IMG/VR virus record: IMGVR_UViG_3300032307_000516
Coordinates: 1 to 64,000 of that record
Source: a virus
Strand: one strand, 5' to 3'
DNA: 64,000 nucleotides
Made by a program: the position numbers and the translations under genes. The first letter of the stretch is position 1. The number at the start of each line of letters is the position of its first letter. Below are positions 5,721 to 17,075 of this stretch, one piece after another. Under the pieces are notes generated by a model that worked only from the letters and a program-made list of their open reading frames with translations, was not told the DNA's origin and ran no database searches.

Positions 5721-7367
5721 ATGTCAAGACTAGGCGAATTTGCTGACAAAAAAACAGCAATGCAAATTTTACAAAACTCCACTTACGGAGCACTAGGAGT
5801 AGAGAACTTCATGGGAGGGATATCTTACAGCTTATCACCTCTAAACACATTAAAGATTGTTGCTGCTTCTTCAATCTTTGGAGAACCACAATATTATAGA
5901 GATGGATTAGGTGCTCCTAGTAACCTTAGCACTATCTTGGACTATTCTATATTAGCTCCGATGTTCAAAGCAGAATCTGGAGCTTTAAAAGATAATCTGA
6001 GTGCTGTAGATATCTTCGAAGAAGCCATACAGGCAGCTTTAGACTTCGACTTTAAAGCAACATTGGATTTAGCTTTAGAACTCCGTAACGAGTACTATAT
6101 GCGTCTAAATCCAGCTGTAATATTTGTTAAAGCAAGTATGCACGAAGGTCGTCAGGAGTTCAACGAGAAAAATCCTGGGTACATGAAGATGATAGGTAAA
6201 GCTATTGCTCTTAGACCTGATGATTTAACAAATCAGTTCGAATACTATATGTATAAGAACGGAGGTAAAAAAGGTCTTTCATCTTTGGTGAAAAGAACTT
6301 GGGCAGAAAGACTTGCAGAATTCTCGCGTTACCAATTGAACAAATACAAGGGTAAAAGATTAATCGACCTTGTTCGTATCTCTCACGCTAAAAGTGAAGA
6401 TATTAATGAGCTAATGACAACTGGTACATTAAAAGTAGAAGAGTCAGAAAAAACATGGGAGATCTTAAGATCAGAAAAAAAATCATGGGAAGAGATTGTA
6501 AACACTATCTCAATCCCACATATGGCTCTTTTGAGAAACCTTAGAGGTATTTTTACTGAAGTCGAAGATCCTACACTTACTGCAAGAATTTTAACTCAGT
6601 TAAAAGGCGGTGTTATAAAAGGAAAACAATTCCCTTTTAGATATTGGTCAGCTTATAAAGCTGTATCCAATTCACAGATCCACCACAAACAACTTGTTTT
6701 GGATACTCTTGAAGAATGTTTAGACATCTCTGTAGAGAATATGCCTAAATTAAAAGGTAAAACGGTTTGTCTTTCTGATAACTCAGGATCTGCATGGGGT
6801 GCTTTCAATAGCGAATATGGATCAGTTACTGTAGCAGAGATTGCTAACTTGTCTTCATTAATTACATCACTACAATCTGATTCAGGAGAAGTTGGTGTAT
6901 TTGGGGATGATCTTTCATTGAAAGGAGTATCTAAAAGAAATGGCCTTCTTACACAATTAGAAGAAACTTCTAAAAGAGGTAGAGCTCAAGGAGGTGGTAC
7001 AGAAAATGGAATTTGGGTATTCTTTGATGAAGCCATCAAAAATAAAGTCCATTACGACAACATCTTTATCTATTCAGATATGCAAGCAGGTCACGGTAAT
7101 CTTTATGGACACGGACACACAGTAGGTAAAACTAAATTTGTCCACCCAAGAAAAGGCGGAACATACGTAGACGTACTTGCTATGGCTCAGGAATACAGAG
7201 ATAAAGTTAATCCTAAGGTTAATTTATTTACAGTTCAAGTAGGAGGTTACAACAACAGTGTTCTTCCTGAGGCTCTTTACAGAGGAGCAATATTAGCTGG
7301 TTGGACTGGTAAAGAACCTGTATTTGCTAAAGCAATTATAGACATTTGGGATTCAGTAGAAGCCTAA
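5721..7367 (+). CDS. rsr: TROVE-domain Ro60-like RNA-binding protein with C-terminal vWA domain
   Basis: Motifs ALLRNLR, QFPFRYWSAY, MIDAS-like DNSGS and IFIYSDMQ; 548 aa. Confidence 0.92.
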   Translation: MSRLGEFADKKTAMQILQNSTYGALGVENFMGGISYSLSPLNTLKIVAASSIFGEPQYYRDGLGAPSNLSTILDYSILAPMFKAESGALKDNLSAVDIFEEAIQAALDFDFKATLDLALELRNEYYMRLNPAVIFVKASMHEGRQEFNEKNPGYMKMIGKAIALRPDDLTNQFEYYMYKNGGKKGLSSLVKRTWAERLAEFSRYQLNKYKGKRLIDLVRISHAKSEDINELMTTGTLKVEESEKTWEILRSEKKSWEEIVNTISIPHMALLRNLRGIFTEVEDPTLTARILTQLKGGVIKGKQFPFRYWSAYKAVSNSQIHHKQLVLDTLEECLDISVENMPKLKGKTVCLSDNSGSAWGAFNSEYGSVTVAEIANLSSLITSLQSDSGEVGVFGDDLSLKGVSKRNGLLTQLEETSKRGRAQGGGTENGIWVFFDEAIKNKVHYDNIFIYSDMQAGHGNLYGHGHTVGKTKFVHPRKGGTYVDVLAMAQEYRDKVNPKVNLFTVQVGGYNNSVLPEALYRGAILAGWTGKEPVFAKAIIDIWDSVEA

Positions 7368-8654: not shown

Positions 8655-8732
8655 AGGTCCTGTGTTAATAAAAAATAATCATTAACTAAACCGGGACCTT
8701 TAAAAGTCTCGGTTTTTTTATGTTCTTTGACA
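8652..8732 (+). promoter_or_regulatory. Attenuator 1: antiterminator/terminator switch plus boxA
   Basis: TAAAGGTCCTG (8652-62) pairs with CGGGACCTTTA (8692-8702), competing with terminator AAACCGGGAC/GTCTCGGTTT plus T-run; TGTTCTTTGACA at 8721. Confidence 0.8.
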
Positions 8733-8749
8733 TGTTGGATTATCAAATT

Positions 8750-11905: not shown

Positions 11906-11985
11906 GCCCTCGTGGTGGAATTGGTAGACACGCTAGACTTAGGATCTAGTGCGAAAGCGTGAGAGTTCGAGTCTCTCCGAGGGTA
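11906..11985 (+). tRNA. tRNA-Leu(TAG)
   Basis: Cloverleaf, loop CTTAGGA, variable arm. Confidence 0.95.
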
Positions 11986-11987
11986 CT

Positions 11988-12485
11988 ATGAAAGTTATAT
12001 TTTTAGATTTTGATGGTGTTCTTAATCTTATACCTCAAGGACATGACTATTACGGAGGGATTTTTCACCCTGAATTTGTCGGCAACCTAGGTAGGATTAT
12101 AGAGGAAACTGGAGCAAAACTTGTGATAAGCTCTTCGTGGAGAACTATGGGATTGGAAAGACTTAGAATGATGTGGGAACATCGTTTATATCCAGGAGAC
12201 ATCATAGGAGTTACCCCAGATCTTAGATGGAGGACAAAAAAAGATGCTATGGAATTAAACGAAGTCGAGTACGTTAGAGGAGATGAAATAGAGTCATGGC
12301 TAAATCTACATCCGGAGGTAACTAATTATGTTATACTTGACGATGATGATGATATGTTACAATCACAAAGAATAAACTTTGTAAGAACATCTGATAATAT
12401 TAATCATCCTGATTGCATTGATATAGGATACGGATTAACTAATATTTGTTCTAACGATGCAATTAGAATTTTAAACAGAAAATAA
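11988..12485 (+). CDS. HAD phosphatase, Swiss-army-knife RNA-repair type (HAD_SAK_2-like)
   Basis: IFLDFDGV, ISSSWR, RGDEI and ILDD motifs; ATG at 11988 lies just after the tRNA. Confidence 0.85.
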   Translation: MKVIFLDFDGVLNLIPQGHDYYGGIFHPEFVGNLGRIIEETGAKLVISSSWRTMGLERLRMMWEHRLYPGDIIGVTPDLRWRTKKDAMELNEVEYVRGDEIESWLNLHPEVTNYVILDDDDDMLQSQRINFVRTSDNINHPDCIDIGYGLTNICSNDAIRILNRK

Positions 12486-13054
12486 TGAAAGTTATATTTT
12501 TAGATCATGATGGAGTAATTTGTCTTTCCCAGCAATTTGGTGGGCGTTACAAAAAGCAGACTAAAGCTAGAACTAAGCTTTCTCAAAACGTGATGGATTT
12601 TCCAGTCGATGCTAGATTTGATAACTTCGATAAGAAAGCTATTAAAGTTCTAAACCTAATCTTAGAAGATACTGGAGCTGAAATAGTTGTTTCTTCTGAT
12701 TGGAAGAACTGGGCAAATGTTGAAGAAATGGGCGAATATTACGAACAACAAGGTATAATTAAAAAGCCTATTGATTTTACACCTAGAGAATACACAATGC
12801 CAGAGAAACAAGAATGGCATCCAGACTGGGATTTAGAAGCATCAAGAACTTTAGAAATCCAAGAATGGCTAAAAGATCATCCAGAGGTTACTCATTGGGT
12901 AGCAATAGATGATTTAGATATGAGCTTTAAAGAGGTATCAAATAATAGAAGCGGTACTGGCTGGGGCTTAAAAAACTTTGTACACACCCCAAGTATCACT
13001 GAAGGGATTAAAAAAATGGGTATAAAAGAAAAAGTTTTAAAATTTTTAAAATAA
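12485..13054 (+). CDS. HAD phosphatase, HAD_SAK_2-like paralog
   Basis: IFLDHDGV, VSSDWK, RTLEI and AIDD motifs. Confidence 0.85.
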   Translation: MKVIFLDHDGVICLSQQFGGRYKKQTKARTKLSQNVMDFPVDARFDNFDKKAIKVLNLILEDTGAEIVVSSDWKNWANVEEMGEYYEQQGIIKKPIDFTPREYTMPEKQEWHPDWDLEASRTLEIQEWLKDHPEVTHWVAIDDLDMSFKEVSNNRSGTGWGLKNFVHTPSITEGIKKMGIKEKVLKFLK

Positions 13055-13245: not shown

Positions 13246-13319
13246 TACAGAAAATCATAATTAGATATTTTGGAAAAGGCTTCGATTTAATCGAAGCCTT
13301 TTTTATTTGTTCTTTGACA
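13234..13319 (+). promoter_or_regulatory. Attenuator 3: antiterminator/terminator switch plus boxA
   Basis: GATCGAAGC (13234-42) pairs with GCTTCGATT (13279-87), competing with AAAAGGCTTCGA/TCGAAGCCTTTT; TGTTCTTTGACA at 13308. Confidence 0.82.
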
Positions 13320-13332
13320 TACTGGAAAAAAT

Positions 13333-13476: not shown

Positions 13477-13550
13477 GATCTCGTAGCTCAGTTGGCTAGA
13501 GCACCTCACTTTTAATGAGGGAGTCGAGGGTTCGAGCCCCTCCGGGATCA
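13477..13550 (+). tRNA. tRNA-Lys(TTT)
   Basis: Cloverleaf, loop CTTTTAA. Confidence 0.95.
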
Positions 13551-13556
13551 CTACAC

Positions 13557-13791: not shown

Positions 13792-13925
13792 CAAAAAATG
13801 TAAGAAGTATGAAAATAGTTATTGAAGGAAAAATGAAATCGTCGAATCACAGATTAAATGCGATTCCAGTTAAAATTGAAAGAAAAAATTCTCTAATCAA
13901 AAGAATCAAAAGATTGATTAATAAA

Positions 13926-14011
13926 GGAAAGTAATCTCAGATGGTGACGGGGCTCGCCTGCTAAGCGAAGCGTACCTTAATTGGTATTTGGTTCGATTCC
14001 AATTCTTTCCG
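13926..14011 (+). tRNA. tRNA-Ser(GCT), somewhat divergent
   Basis: Loop CTGCTAA, variable arm, G73; mismatches at stem ends. Confidence 0.8.
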
Positions 14012-14017
14012 CAACAT

Positions 14018-14091
14018 TGACATATAGCTCAGTTGGTTAGAGCGTTGATCTGATACGTCAAAGGTCGAAGGTTCGAATCCTTCTATGTCAA
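14018..14091 (+). tRNA. tRNA-Ile(GAT)
   Basis: Cloverleaf, loop CTGATAC. Confidence 0.93.
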
Positions 14092-14357: not shown

Positions 14358-14430
14358 AGTCTCTTAGCTCAGTTGGTAGAGCGCTTGGTTTACATCCAAG
14401 ATGTCGGGGGTTCGAGCCCCTCAGGGACTA
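14358..14430 (+). tRNA. tRNA-Val(TAC)
   Basis: Cloverleaf, loop TTTACAT. Confidence 0.95.
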
Positions 14431-14433
14431 CAA

Positions 14434-14586
14434 GATTAGAAGCGGTAGATTTGGTTACTTCGCACTTTTAATGCCCGTGTCGGGGGTTCGAATCCCTCAT
14501 CTAGCTCCATAGCAGATCCTAGGATTTGTGCTAGATTAGCTCAGCGGTAGAGCAGGTTCCAAACCAAATCTAAATATTCTCTAATC
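14434..14586 (+). ncRNA. Y-RNA-like element 4 containing a circularly permuted tRNA-Lys(TTT)
   Basis: GATTAGA-AGCGG-TAGATTTGGT-TACTTC [tRNA 3' half, CCA, linker, tRNA 5' half] ACCAAATCTA-AATATTC-TCTAATC. Confidence 0.8.
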
Positions 14587-14592
14587 CTAATA

Positions 14593-14680
14593 TTGATTAG
14601 AAGCGGTGAAAGGGGTTACTTCTCAAAACCTTGTAAATTTTTGACCAAAAAACCACCCCGATTAAATATTCTCTAATCAA
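14593..14680 (+). ncRNA. Y-RNA-like element 5 (short form)
   Basis: TTGATTAGA-AGCGG...GGGGT-TACTTC...ACCCC...AATATTC-TCTAATCAA. Confidence 0.7.
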
Positions 14681-14684
14681 AACT

Positions 14685-14756
14685 GGGGATGTAGCTCAGC
14701 GGTAGAGCTCCCGACTGTTAATCGGTAGGTCGCTGGTTCGAATCCAGCCTTCCCCG
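14685..14756 (+). tRNA. tRNA-Asn(GTT)
   Basis: Cloverleaf, loop CTGTTAA, G73. Confidence 0.92.
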
Positions 14757-14792
14757 CAATTCAGAGTGTTGAGCAATTGGTTGCTCAGCTGA
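14756..14792 (+). repeat. Truncated duplicate of the tRNA-Tyr 5' half (direct repeat of 15940-15976)
   Basis: GCAATTCAGAGTGTTGAGCAATTGGTTGCTCAGCTGA versus GCACTTCGGAGTGTTGAGCAATTGGCTGCTCAGCTGA (3 mismatches). Confidence 0.85.
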
Positions 14793-16586: not shown

Positions 16587-17075
16587 ATGAAAGTGCTAGT
16601 ATTAAATAATGACTTTACGCCTATAAGCGTTACCGATTTTGCCCGGGGATTTAAGCTTGTATATAAAGGTAAAGCAGAAATTTTAGAGCACGATGAACAA
16701 AACCCAATTGTTACTGATCAAAGCACCTACAAAAGACCATCAGTAATTCGACTTCTAAAGTATGTTGTTTTGCCTTTCAAAAAGCTAAAACCTACAAGGG
16801 AAAATATCTTTAAAAGAGATGAGATGAAATGTATCTATTGTGATACATCAAAAAATCTCACAATAGATCACGTTTTTCCCAGATCTAGAGGTGGTGGTAA
16901 CACATGGGAAAATTTAGCTACATGCTGTTCAAAATGTAACGGTAGAAAAGGAGATAGAACCCCGGAAGAAGCCGGAATGAAAATGAGACAAAAGCCATTT
17001 AAACCCGGATATGGCTATTTCATAAGGAATTTTTCCAAAGGAATAGATGTGTGGACAGCATATCTTCCAGATTAA
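16587..17075 (+). CDS. HNH endonuclease (McrA-like)
   Basis: CIYC...LTIDHVFPRSRGGGNTWENLATCCSKCN. Confidence 0.92.
   Translation: MKVLVLNNDFTPISVTDFARGFKLVYKGKAEILEHDEQNPIVTDQSTYKRPSVIRLLKYVVLPFKKLKPTRENIFKRDEMKCIYCDTSKNLTIDHVFPRSRGGGNTWENLATCCSKCNGRKGDRTPEEAGMKMRQKPFKPGYGYFIRNFSKGIDVWTAYLPD

Follow-up and report, generated by a model that had tools for sequence, protein, structure and literature searches.

In the two-piece permuted tmRNA of alpha-proteobacteria and some cyanobacteria, the linker is cut, leaving a tRNA-like domain whose CCA end is free and that consists of two base-paired pieces; tmRNA is charged with alanine and acts on the ribosome with SmpB, without having an anticodon arm. 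Algal and archaeal permuted tRNA precursors are cut by the splicing endonuclease at a bulge-helix-bulge motif, ligated to a circle and opened again, finally giving decoding tRNAs. Such circularly permuted tRNA genes are said to have been described by Soma in 2007 and by others in Cyanidioschyzon merolae and in some archaea. For the bacterial YrlA RNAs, Chen et al. (2014, PMC4201824) report that nearly all genes are located within 4 kb of the Ro gene, and they describe a 5′ motif GNCGAAN0-1G thought to contact Ro as well as a less conserved “V” stem-loop directly following the motif YUAY. The YrlA RNA of Mycobacterium smegmatis is described there as an RNase P substrate, both in the cell and in vitro, giving a CCA end and two halves that are both bound to Ro. 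As partner of the tRNA-like half, an elbow-reading tRNA-binding protein is expected by Wang et al. (2018, bioRxiv 10.1101/312249).

The DNA stretch analyzed here, in the following called the window, comprises 64,000 nucleotides of an uncultured virus (positions 1 to 64,000 of IMG/VR record IMGVR_UViG_3300032307_000516). A complete circularly permuted tRNA-Lys(UUU) carried inside a Y-RNA-like stem had been predicted in it from the sequence. This element, Y2, can most likely be understood as a YrlA-class Y RNA in which a full tRNA mimic is tethered to Ro, and its relatives in phages and bacteria bear on how the whole family is to be read.

Anatomy and genomic context of Y2

On inspection, all parts listed in the original prediction were found within 14434-14586 (Table 1), giving a Y-RNA-like stem that bears a complete but circularly permuted cloverleaf with the break between tRNA positions 28 and 29. 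Joining 14556 to 14462 in silico indeed rebuilds the cloverleaf, as the re-joined module is called tRNA-Lys(ttt) by ARAGORN. In native order, 14434-14586 is called a tRNA neither by ARAGORN nor by the Rfam tRNA model (RF00005), and across the window Rfam finds only tRNAs at gathering scores. Native-order elements of the family are sometimes called a tRNA by tRNA finders. The T arm of Y2 lies 5′ of the D arm with an acceptor-like stem in between, and the nucleotides for the tertiary pairs are present (U8, A14, G15:C48, G18-G19 and the T-loop). Including U-CCA, the full linker has 24 nt.

The Ro gene invoked in the prediction is present as well, encoding a protein 53.5% identical to gp540 of Bacillus phage G, which is annotated as TROVE ribonucleoprotein. 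Y2 is located 7.07 kb downstream of this gene on the same strand, compared with the up to 4 kb reported for nearly all YrlA genes, and within an array of 26 tRNA genes that also includes two RNA-repair-type HAD_SAK_2 genes. The predicted recurrence of the scaffold is borne out by the smaller Y3, which shares its 13-nt 5′ end and its 15-nt 3′ end with Y2. Between 13306 and 16700, terminator-like sites were not found, and a sigma-70 promoter scan gave nothing convincing. Y2 would probably be made within the tRNA-array transcript and freed by the enzymes trimming the neighboring tRNAs, with its 5′ end resulting from 3′ processing of tRNA-Val and the 3′ end of Y3 from an RNase P cut at the 5′ end of tRNA-Asn. 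RNA ligase, CCA-adding enzyme and PNPase were not found in a Pfam scan of 30 of the 61 listed open reading frames (at least 110 aa), nor in an NCBIfam scan of nine frames, eight of which are also in the Pfam set; as the record is only about 25% complete, their absence from the virus cannot be claimed.

Four RNA-library runs, all in the form of assembled contigs, were compared with the element. One 319-nt contig (depth 5.4) covers 14426-14748 without a break, for which DNA carry-over is a possible source. A joint between 14556 and 14462 was not among the matches listed for these contigs, which can show neither ends nor rare joined forms. Joints listed with intervening letters were discarded, as they came from ordinary tRNAs of other organisms, which match because D and T arms are conserved.

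Table 1. Features of the Y2 locus and of the Bacillus phage G element; paired percentages and two-sided changes refer to alignment A3.
Feature	Position	Strand	Details
Ro60/TROVE protein gene, presumed partner	5721-7367	+	Pfam TROVE E 1.2e-9; PDB TROVE chains E 8.6e-11
Ordinary tRNA-Lys(UUU)	13477-13551		Same array as Y2
tRNA-Val(UAC)	14358-14431	+	Ends 2 nt before Y2; ARAGORN and Rfam
Y2, whole, probable YrlA-type Y RNA	14434-14586	+	153 nt; full-length relatives via covariance model R1
S1 basal helix, 5′ strand	14434-14440	+	Partner 14580-14586; helix 1, 91.4% paired; two-sided changes in 7/7 pairs
5′ internal-loop motif AGCGGUAG	14441-14448	+	Likely Ro-contact region; same stretch in Y3
S2 upper scaffold helix, 5′ strand	14446-14456	+	Partner 14562-14572; helix 2, 83.4% paired; two-sided changes in 8/8 pairs
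Conserved junction motif GUUACUUC	14454-14461	+	Includes YUAY of Chen et al. (2014); final 5 nt are the single strand into the hairpin
Lower anticodon arm	14462-14474	+	3-bp stem (tRNA 29-31/39-41) and 7-nt loop CUUUUAA (32-38); helix 6, 98.2% paired
tRNA positions 42-43, CC	14475-14476	+	Partner GG 14555-14556 (27-28); helix 7, 99.4% paired
Variable loop, 5 nt	14477-14481	+	Terminal C is the partner of G15; sequence inspection
T arm	14482-14498	+	Helix 8, 100% paired
Acceptor 3′ strand, 7 nt	14499-14505	+	Followed by U at discriminator place and CCA, 14506-14509
Remaining linker, 20 nt	14510-14529	+	7-bp hairpin 14512-14518/14523-14529, abutting acceptor 5′ strand
Acceptor 5′ strand	14530-14536	+	Followed by U8-A9; helices 9 and 10 (14530-14556 region), 97.6% and 100% paired
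D arm	14539-14553	+	Followed by A26 and GG 14555-14556
3′ part	14557-14586	+	5-nt junction strand, S2 3′ strand, 7-nt internal loop, S1 3′ strand
Y3, second Y RNA, YrlB-like, no tRNA-like module	14595-14678	+	34.1 bits to model R1; 8 nt after Y2
tRNA-Asn(GUU)	14685-14757	+	6 nt after Y3; ARAGORN and Rfam
Bacillus phage G element, unannotated	JN638751.1 405193-405348		91.2 bits to Y2-built model

Relatives and class assignment

The proposed comparison with the YrlA model gave a divided result: RF02553 is the best non-tRNA match (14474-14558, covering T, acceptor and D arms plus the closing pairs), albeit with only 28.3 bits where 69 are required for gathering. As the 14 related loci tested (10 bacterial) all stayed below this score as well, the Rfam model misses such RNAs and appears to be narrow, making its score a weak criterion. 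With 48 loci containing Ro relatives collected for comparison, model R1, built from Y2, finds full-length relatives in these loci at 39 to 177 bits. Conversely, among the matches listed, 61 of 76 loci with full elements found by motif alone have a Ro homologue within the few kb stored. At least 120 stretches of viral and at least 120 of genomic sequence contain the junction motif YUAY/GUUACUUC too, and GUUACUU as well as the 5′ motifs are common to Ro-linked relatives from many phyla. Assignment of Y2 to the YrlA class is probable, as part of the explanation favored below. Annotations overlook such elements, which are overlaid by small “hypothetical” genes in Gordonia phage Rabbitrun and lie in a blank region in Bacillus phage G.

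The homologue in locus L010 is 88% identical to Y2 and shows compensating changes in the acceptor stem; despite the replaced acceptor region, anticodon loop and hairpin stem are identical. In the loci with the closest Ro relatives (91% identical; L005, L006 and L012), Y2 is missing at the syntenic place and only Y3 is kept, for example in L006 directly after tRNA-Val with Y2 missing in between, and Y2 is thus dispensable. Y3 is kept in L006, L010 and L012. A search for near-identical phage genomes matched 142 records, only over tRNA stretches corresponding to 3% of the query, and did not give an annotated close relative. A comparison of segment identity between supposedly close pairs was dropped, as the filter let through 141 pairs that are not orthologues; T arm, D arm and junction motif are too conserved for this test to be informative.

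Fold and covariation

Folded as a single sequence, Y2 reaches –46.4 kcal/mol (z –3.62), which is better than all of 200 shuffles. This fold recovers S1 and S2, the three arms of the tRNA-like module (T, acceptor and D) and the hairpin of the linker. The fold does not include the 3-bp/7-nt hairpin or the CC:GG pairs, 14462-14465 being paired with 14477-14480 instead, so that the split anticodon arm rests on comparison and not on energy. This comparison is provided by alignment A3, comprising 80 aligned Y2 relatives and ten helices, in which both the hairpin and the two closing pairs are formed nearly throughout (Table 1). Two-sided changes occur in 35 to 38 sequences for each of the hairpin pairs and in 48 and 16 sequences for the closing pairs. 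The whole A3 structure is 92.5% paired, compared with 57.4% in shuffles and 38.7 to 47.0% when partners are slid, and all ten helices are backed by covariation across the 80 sequences. The motif AGCGGUAG is a variant of the family consensus G-C-G-N-A-G with one base extra (column counts in A3: G 70/80, C 56/80, G 59/80, A 48/80 and G 47/80). It is a near but not exact match to GNCGAAN0-1G, an exact GCCGAAG being found in some of the 80 relatives.

A split anticodon arm across the family

Of 132 elements from phages and bacteria, 90 have the split arm, i.e., a 3-bp hairpin with a 7-nt loop plus 2 bp closed by the strand following the D arm; shuffles yield 4.5 on average and 12 at most. Loops of these 90 elements have the hallmarks of tRNA anticodon loops, with U33 in 87, a purine at 37 in 86, A38 in 85 and G32 in none, and 36 different triplets are found at the anticodon place. 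As in real tRNAs, G36 is mostly followed by G37 (16/19) and other bases at 36 by A37 (65/71). In each of the five loci bearing two full elements, the loops differ from each other. Many loops end in GGA, possibly a motif of other meaning. The anticodon stem shows no particular similarity to that of an ordinary tRNA with the same anticodon, since the identity between element and such a tRNA of the same locus (about 3.1 of 10 positions after subtracting ARAGORN calls on the element itself) is no higher than to unrelated tRNAs (3.17).

Judged by its position behind UUAC (14455-14458), the Y2 hairpin occupies the exact place of the “V” stem-loop of Chen et al. (2014). Given this match and the split arms in the 90 elements, the anticodon-like loop is the norm of the family and not a peculiarity of Y2. 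The contrast originally drawn with established YrlA RNAs, in which the anticodon arm was held to be replaced by the Ro-binding stem, can accordingly not be maintained. A complete but rearranged tRNA including an anticodon arm is common to most Y2 relatives in phages and bacteria. This family-wide reading of the V loop seems to be unpublished, albeit reviews or the supplementary alignments of Chen et al. (2014) might already have it.

CCA, linker and acceptor stem

The acceptor stem of Y2 has 7 bp and is followed by U-CCA, position –1 is U and position +1 is G, and the encoded CCA compares with only 4 of the 26 ordinary tRNA genes of the window. Of 41 long-linker relatives, 8 have N-CCA directly behind an acceptor stem of 7 bp (binomial p 2e-7 versus 1/64), a count that leaves out the case of the cultured Bacillus phage G. 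In 91 of the 132 relatives, the acceptor stem is closed by a loop of up to 9 nt; therefore, a free end is no need of the family. The L010 homologue has a closed 9-bp acceptor stem without CCA, and the linker hairpin of Y2 is not conserved in it. In addition, the RNA-library contig, representing a near-identical variant, has C>T at 14508, so that the CCA is probably lost there, judging from this one contig. Regarding the conservation in homologues that the original prediction had asked about, the anticodon loop hence stood in L010, while the internal CCA is not conserved.

Discussion

According to the reading that we consider the most likely, Y2 is a YrlA-class RNA presenting a full tRNA mimic from a Ro tether. 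The basal stem and the conserved internal loop would bind the Ro60/TROVE protein of the phage itself. The upper part starts with the lower anticodon arm and the variable loop, continues via T arm, acceptor 3′ strand, linker, acceptor 5′ strand and D arm, and ends with the two uppermost anticodon-stem pairs. As no base is left between them, the 3-bp hairpin is expected to stack on the two closing pairs, so that a regular anticodon stem of 5 bp with a loop of 7 nt would result; the Ro-binding stem would exit sideways at the 28/29 nick via two 5-nt single strands. As in other Y RNAs, the tRNA-like module would be the effector side, with Ro at the other end, showing the whole tRNA shape including the anticodon loop to a tRNA-binding factor. 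Moreover, Y2 may be opened by RNase P at a predicted site between 14529 and 14530 and trimmed to CCA, giving a two-piece RNA as with the M. smegmatis YrlA.

Extending this to the family is possible but tentative. The V stem-loop could be a true anticodon arm and YrlA RNAs in general complete circularly permuted tRNAs, with the Ro stem grafted at 28/29 and an effector reading the anticodon loop. Phages might then carry panels of Ro-tethered tRNAs with different anticodons that bait, divert or sense defense nucleases and other anticodon-loop enzymes, and in the long-linker CCA subclass, to which Y2 and the Bacillus phage G element belong, RNase P might open the linker, leaving a tRNA in two pieces whose end is free and possibly chargeable. 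Y2 itself is an addition from an uncultured phage to the known YrlA RNA family, and the wider family result matters more. If most YrlA RNAs have a proper anticodon stem-loop, candidate partners widen from elbow-reading proteins to anticodon-loop nucleases, modification enzymes and synthetases. In that case, the partner question can be addressed directly with loop mutants.

The decoy idea has also to be weighed for Y2 on its own, where it is a statement on the effector and compatible with the Ro-tethered mimic. PrrC and PARIS target tRNA-Lys, and the Ro-tethered tRNA-Lys(UUU)-like loop might soak up a host nuclease of this type or another anticodon-loop enzyme or report its activity, thereby sparing the tRNA-Lys of phage and host. 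We regard this as conceivable, though rather doubtful. It would fit the loops keeping tRNA hallmarks and tRNA-like 36/37 combinations while the triplet varies, their differing within each two-element locus, the loop and stem shared with L010 and the RNA-repair-type genes of the array; and Hughes et al. (2020, PMC7790460) suggest that YrlA in Salmonella may competitively inhibit an anticodon nuclease. However, the hairpin-less Salmonella YrlA was not cut by the nuclease studied, according to the same paper, and most of the triplets seen do not correspond to any known nuclease target. Five of the 90 loops even have triplets with A34, which are rarely used by bacteria, the anticodon stems do not copy those of same-anticodon tRNAs, and the recurrent GGA ending may mean something else.

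That Y2 is a chargeable two-piece tRNA is unlikely. In this case, RNase P and 3′ trimming would open the linker and LysRS, recognizing the UUU loop, would charge the CCA end of the still Ro-bound RNA. tRNA-Lys normally has A73, while U is the discriminator base in Y2. The acceptor features given above, the encoded CCA being scarce among the ordinary tRNA genes, the enrichment of N-CCA in long-linker relatives and its presence in Bacillus phage G would suit charging, as would the RNase P-cut M. smegmatis RNA, for which aminoacylation was raised as a possibility (Chen et al., 2014). Nevertheless, the CCA is lost in L010 and probably in the near-identical variant, most acceptor stems of the family are closed and the 7-bp linker hairpin may hinder 3′ trimming, leaving charging possible for the long-linker minority only.

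A permuted tRNA gene proper, from which a decoding tRNA-Lys(UUU) would result by scaffold removal, ligation of 28 to 29 and opening of the linker as in red algae, is highly improbable. The gene order is permuted, the pieces meet without gap or overlap and the possibility was raised for YrlA RNAs generally (Wang et al., 2018). But the junction of Y2 is an 11-bp helix followed by a symmetric 5-nt/5-nt internal loop, i.e., two 5-nt single strands flank the helix, and does not have the 3-nt bulges 4 bp apart of a bulge-helix-bulge; and, according to Wang et al. (2018), no splicing endonuclease has been reported in bacteria. The product would also be redundant, as an ordinary tRNA-Lys(UUU) is encoded in the same array and, likewise, in 14 of the 27 cases that could be tested, the stored locus also encodes an ordinary tRNA with the anticodon of the element; bacteria, in which the family is common, presumably have full tRNA sets. 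The mostly closed acceptor stems, Y2 being missing from the closest relatives and the lack of an RNA ligase among the 30 of 61 frames scanned, in a record about 25% complete, point in the same direction. Thus, the suggestion of a precursor spliced to a mature tRNA is disfavored. Finally, a functionless remnant of two tandem tRNA genes can practically be dismissed: although Y2 lies within a tRNA array and tandem-tRNA junctions weakly match both YrlA models, as Chen et al. (2014) warn, its acceptor strands pair with each other, covariation of the scaffold helices already contradicts a remnant, L010 conserves the element with compensating acceptor changes and the GUUACUU and 5′ motifs extend to Ro-linked relatives of many phyla.

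Comparison with known systems

Like the permuted tRNA genes of Cyanidioschyzon merolae and some archaea, Y2 has the 3′ half upstream of the 5′ half, an acceptor closed by a linker and paired transcript ends, whereas it differs by its presumed Ro-binding stem, the redundant ordinary tRNA-Lys and a junction with neither bulge-helix-bulge nor known enzyme. With two-piece tmRNA it can be likened in the permuted gene and, if its linker is cut as proposed, a CCA-ended two-piece domain, but tmRNA has neither anticodon arm nor Ro-binding stem.

With the YrlA RNAs of Salmonella Typhimurium and other bacteria, as described by Chen et al. (2014), Wang et al. (2018; structure 6CU1) and RF02553, Y2 shares the stem formed by the ends, presumed to bind Ro in Y2, the T arm 5′ of the D arm with the acceptor in between, YUAY, a variant of the 5′ G-C-G motif, the location on the same strand as Ro and a smaller second Y RNA adjoining. 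In the Salmonella YrlA, YUAY is not followed by a hairpin, and the RNA is stated to be without anticodon loop or free CCA end, whereas Y2 has this hairpin, a 7-bp acceptor stem and an encoded CCA, and, as part of a phage tRNA array, lies 7 kb away from Ro. The M. smegmatis YrlA has a 7-bp acceptor stem like Y2, comparing by description and not by sequence, since two of its primer sequences given by Chen et al. (2014) did not find an exact match in the genome collection. According to that paper, the last two letters of its CCA are added post-transcriptionally, while they are encoded in Y2.

The Bacillus phage G element is located among tRNA genes, with the TROVE gene gp540 following about 2 kb downstream; this phage also has an annotated tRNA-CCA pyrophosphorylase, and a tmRNA nearby. 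In contrast to Y2, its loop is AUUAUGA, with another triplet and G at 37, the linker hairpin is absent and the acceptor stem starts with C:G. It agrees with Y2 in the 5′ motif, the GUUACUUC junction, the 3-bp/7-nt hairpin plus 2 bp and the 7-bp acceptor stem, which is followed in phage G by A-CCA and a long A/U-rich linker.

Genomic Surroundings and Anatomy of the Element

The sequence, 64 kb from the start of an IMG/VR virus record (72 kb, completeness rated at about 25%), stems from a tailed phage, as it codes for a large terminase of T4 type, proteins resembling RecA and DnaB, an SbcC-like ATPase and proteins with collagen repeats. One ORF encodes a Ro60/TROVE protein (Pfam TROVE, E 1.2e-9; PDB TROVE chains, E 8.6e-11) sharing 53.5% identity with gp540 of Bacillus phage G, and two adjacent tandem ORFs located between tRNA clusters contain the HAD domain known from RNA-repair proteins of the "Swiss Army Knife" type (Pfam PF18143, E 8e-27 and 9e-23). 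The element studied, Y2 (153 nt), lies within the third tRNA cluster, where it starts 2 nt past a tRNA-Val. Its companion Y3, beginning 8 nt past the Y2 end and followed after 6 nt by tRNA-Asn, is a second copy of the Y2 scaffold without tRNA-like module, having in common with Y2 a 13-nt 5' end, a 15-nt 3' end and the junction motif GUUACUUC. Y3 resembles YrlB, and its inner part folds weakly (z -0.80). Upstream of the third cluster, one terminator-like hairpin is present, and from there up to position 16700 no further one was found; Y2 is likely co-transcribed with the cluster tRNAs. An 11-nt box, TTCTTTGACAT, occurs twice, each time just upstream of a cluster's first tRNA, and is a putative promoter for transcription of the tRNAs and Y RNAs. 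The second box comes after the terminator-like hairpin and a T run, and the arrangement at the first is similar by eye.

Positions of features in the window
Feature	Position	Remark
Ro60/TROVE ORF	5721-7367 (+)	
TTCTTTGACAT box	8723-8733, 13310-13320	
PF18143 ORFs	11949-12485, 12485-13054	
Terminator-like hairpin	13271-13305	
Mechanical ORF, 41 aa	13809-13934	
Possible degenerate scaffold copy	13852-13898	5' motif with 3 mismatches, 3' motif exact
tRNA-like region	~13923-14012	by eye
Y2	14434-14586 (+)	YrlA-type Y RNA
Outer stem	14434-14440 with 14580-14586	then internal loop
Second scaffold helix	14446-14456 with 14562-14572	then 5-nt single strand
Hairpin	14462-14474	3-bp stem, 7-nt loop CUUUUAA
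CC	14475-14476	then 5-nt variable loop
T arm	14482-14498	
Acceptor 3' strand	14499-14509	7 nt, then U and CCA
Linker remainder		20 nt after CCA, 7-bp hairpin inside
Acceptor 5' strand	14530-14536	complementary to 3' strand; then UA, D arm, A
GG	14555-14556	
Y3	14595-14678	

Besides, a possible degenerate third scaffold copy falls within a 41-aa mechanical ORF. A further region appears tRNA-like by eye, with pairing acceptor ends, a T arm, the loop CUGCUAA and an apparent long variable arm of the Ser GCU type; it was called neither by ARAGORN nor by the Rfam tRNA model, and a YrlA-model hit of 23 bits, 13962-14077, overlaps it.

In native order, Y2 was not called by ARAGORN, though 26 tRNA genes were found across the window, and Rfam at gathering scores returned 25 tRNAs and no other family. 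All parts of the permuted tRNA-Lys(UUU) listed in the original prediction are present at the positions given there, and its rebuilt cloverleaf was confirmed, as the halves reordered by script (14556 joined to 14462, tRNA positions 28/29) are identified by ARAGORN as tRNA-Lys(ttt). In the minimum-energy fold of Y2 (-46.4 kcal/mol, z -3.62, beating 200 of 200 shuffles), the two scaffold helices form, as do the linker hairpin and the acceptor, D and T arms. However, 14462-14465 are paired with 14477-14480 in place of the 3-bp hairpin and the CC:GG pairs, so that this split anticodon arm (hairpin with 7-nt loop plus two closing pairs) rests on comparison and not on energy. The hairpin is situated below the 27:43 and 28:42 pairs, with zero bases in between, rather than in the stretch from position 44 to the T stem. 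In both length and conserved bases, its loop matches an anticodon loop. Most simply, this can be read as a three-way junction, where stacking of the hairpin on the two closing pairs yields a regular anticodon arm, with the Ro-binding stem exiting at the nick.

Family Assignment and Close Relatives

Judged by its position after the YUAY motif, the Ro linkage, the 5' motif and the companion Y3, Y2 belongs to the YrlA family (bacterial Y RNA-like A), members of which were reported near Ro in 254 bacteria and 22 phages (Chen 2014, PMC4201824), and its hairpin is the published V stem-loop. The comparison with the Rfam YrlA model proposed in the original prediction gave a match, albeit at 28.3 bits and below the gathering score of 69. 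This is no argument against membership, since RF02553 reached its gathering score in 0 of 14 related loci that each bear a full element (bacterial L181, L185, L187, L197, L202, L211, L222, L238, L248, and L250; viral L066, L102, L115, and L120). At the same time, tRNA tools call native-order elements (L102 by the Rfam tRNA model at 29.5 bits, 8 loci similarly by ARAGORN), hence both missed and false annotation are a risk.

A Ro-protein scan of viral contigs yielded 48 loci (26-91% identity), among which blastn found a full-length Y2 copy in one only (L010; 88.3% identity, 154 columns). Here, scaffold, hairpin and the T and D arms differ by just two substitutions, and a different sequence stands in the acceptor region, whose strands remain paired via compensating changes (9 bp closed by a 13-nt loop). 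Loss of anticodon loop and CCA in homologs, along with no processing at the linker, had been named as the sign of an ordinary mimic; in this copy the loop is kept, but the CCA is absent. Three loci have Ro proteins 89-91% identical. In one of them (L006), tRNA-Val is directly followed by a Y3-type RNA and then tRNA-Asn, and in the other two (L005 and L012) blastn and covariance model give a Y3-type match only; therefore, Y2 is missing from the syntenic place in the closest relatives. Y3 is kept in L006, L010, and L012. An RNA-library contig spanning 14426-14748 differs at six positions, including C>T at 14508 destroying the CCA, which calls for caution as it is one contig at depth 5.4.

A Split Anticodon Arm as Common Rule

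A covariance model built from the two copies, window and L010, gave full-length matches in many Ro loci, with a compensated hairpin stem and other triplets in the 7-nt loop. Scanning for the plain pattern GUUACUUC with a T-loop start 20-27 nt downstream matched at least 120 viral-contig and at least 120 bacterial-genome stretches, the phyla among the matches listed being Actinomycetota, Bacteroidota, Acidobacteriota, Bacillota, Pseudomonadota, Verrucomicrobiota, and others. From the matches listed and the Ro loci, a parser requiring T arm, 7-nt acceptor pairing (at least 6/7), D arm and, 20-36 nt ahead of the T stem, TTAC extracted 132 distinct elements. All five pairs in the register 3 bp/7-nt loop/3 bp/2 bp are formed in 90 of these, compared with a mean of 4.5 and a maximum of 12 fits when shuffling the upstream 24 nt (500 trials). 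Among Ro-anchored loci, which were not motif-selected, 11 of 20 elements fit fully and most others are one pair short. Of the 90 re-joined modules, ARAGORN identified 88 as tRNA bearing the expected anticodon, which is partly circular as the parser itself seeks parts resembling a tRNA. When 80 covariance-model matches were aligned, an alignment fitted to the model and so somewhat biased toward structure, the hairpin is 98.2% and the two closing pairs are 99.4% paired, and for each pair 16-48 sequences have changes on both sides. Over the entire structure, pairing reaches 92.5%, versus 57.4% in shuffles and 38.7-47.0% with partners slid. Among the matches listed, a Ro homologue was found within the stored few kb in 61 of 76 motif-found loci with full element (43/50 viral, 18/26 bacterial).

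Within the 90 fitting elements, position 33 is U in 87, 37 a purine in 86 and 38 A in 85, while position 32 is C in 62, A in 18, U in 10 and never G. Positions 34-36 show 36 different triplets (most commonly GUU 16, GCU 9, UUU 7, and CAU 6), with A34 in 5 elements. G36 is followed by G37 in 16 of 19 cases, and another base at 36 by A37 in 65 of 71. About a fifth of the loops end in GGA irrespective of triplet (16/90 with G36 G37, nearly always A38). tRNAs methylated at G37 follow a G36-G37 rule, which the GGA ending fits, but it could also be a separate loop motif.

Elements are also present in cultured phages. Bacillus phage G bears an unannotated one (JN638751.1, 405193-405348; locus L300, 9723-9878) about 2 kb upstream of the TROVE gene, with 7-bp acceptor stem, A-CCA and long linker, located between gp538 and gp539, with TROVE gp540, a tmRNA gene and an annotated tRNA-CCA pyrophosphorylase gene nearby. 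In Gordonia phage Rabbitrun (NC_060133.1; L301, 3455-3647), an element whose loop reads AUUUUAA immediately precedes the Ro gene gp95 and overlaps the two small "hypothetical" genes gp93 and gp94, whose annotation is therefore doubtful. As the hairpin of a relative in Streptomyces phage BRock is short and not anticodon-like, the split-arm rule, although fitting many relatives, is common but not universal.

Acceptor End and CCA

The acceptor stem is closed by at most 9 nt, often a tetraloop, in 91 of the 132 elements, and 41 have a linker of at least 10 nt. N-CCA follows the 7-bp stem in 8 of these 41 (binomial p 2e-7 versus 1/64) and in 2 of the 91; in the long-linker class, A is the commonest discriminator (20/41) and C the commonest next base (23/41). 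Among the ordinary tRNA genes of the window, 4 of 26 encode CCA at the 3' end. The Y2 CCA is part of a recurrent pattern among relatives, which is not retained even among its nearest ones.

Possible Function

Y2 is probably a Ro-tethered complete tRNA mimic freed from the tRNA-array transcript. It would be transcribed within the array and then released, its tRNA-shaped half recruiting a tRNA-binding factor while tethered to Ro, and the Y2 copy may be opened by RNase P. The tRNA-like domain of Salmonella YrlA has been suggested to competitively inhibit an anticodon nuclease (Hughes 2020, PMC7790460), and Y2 might, with lower probability, be bait or decoy for anticodon-loop enzymes: the loop is kept against a fast-changing acceptor end, triplets vary and the loops differ in 5 of 5 loci with two full elements, whereas the anticodon stems do not replicate the stems of the corresponding ordinary tRNAs. 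That a two-piece form is charged is conceivable for the long-linker class only and appears improbable. Splicing into a decoding tRNA is very improbable, given that an ordinary tRNA-Lys(UUU) is already in the same array, 14 of 27 testable relatives duplicate an anticodon of their own locus, acceptor stems are closed in most relatives, neither a cleavage motif nor an enzyme is known and the closest relatives do without Y2.

Comparison With Known Y RNAs

Y2 is an addition to the YrlA family. What the original prediction observed is confirmed, and its interpretation is supported in part: it holds for a YrlA-like Y RNA with a permuted complete tRNA, but the retained anticodon loop considered special is the family rule. 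This rule merits attention because viewing the V loop as split anticodon arm narrows down what the partner of Y RNAs in bacteria and phages could be. The passages covered from the literature on YrlA and anticodon contain no description of the V loop as anticodon loop, though reviews or supplements beyond them might, and among publications on permuted tRNA and bacteriophage, none is on Y RNAs by title. Acceptor, anticodon-stem and variable-loop regions of YrlA RNAs vary in size, and Salmonella YrlA is described without anticodon loop and without free CCA (Wang 2018, bioRxiv 10.1101/312249). For M. smegmatis YrlA, RNase P cutting and a CCA end have been shown (Chen 2014, PMC4201824), and the recurrent CCA pattern would be compatible with a similar opening of the linker.
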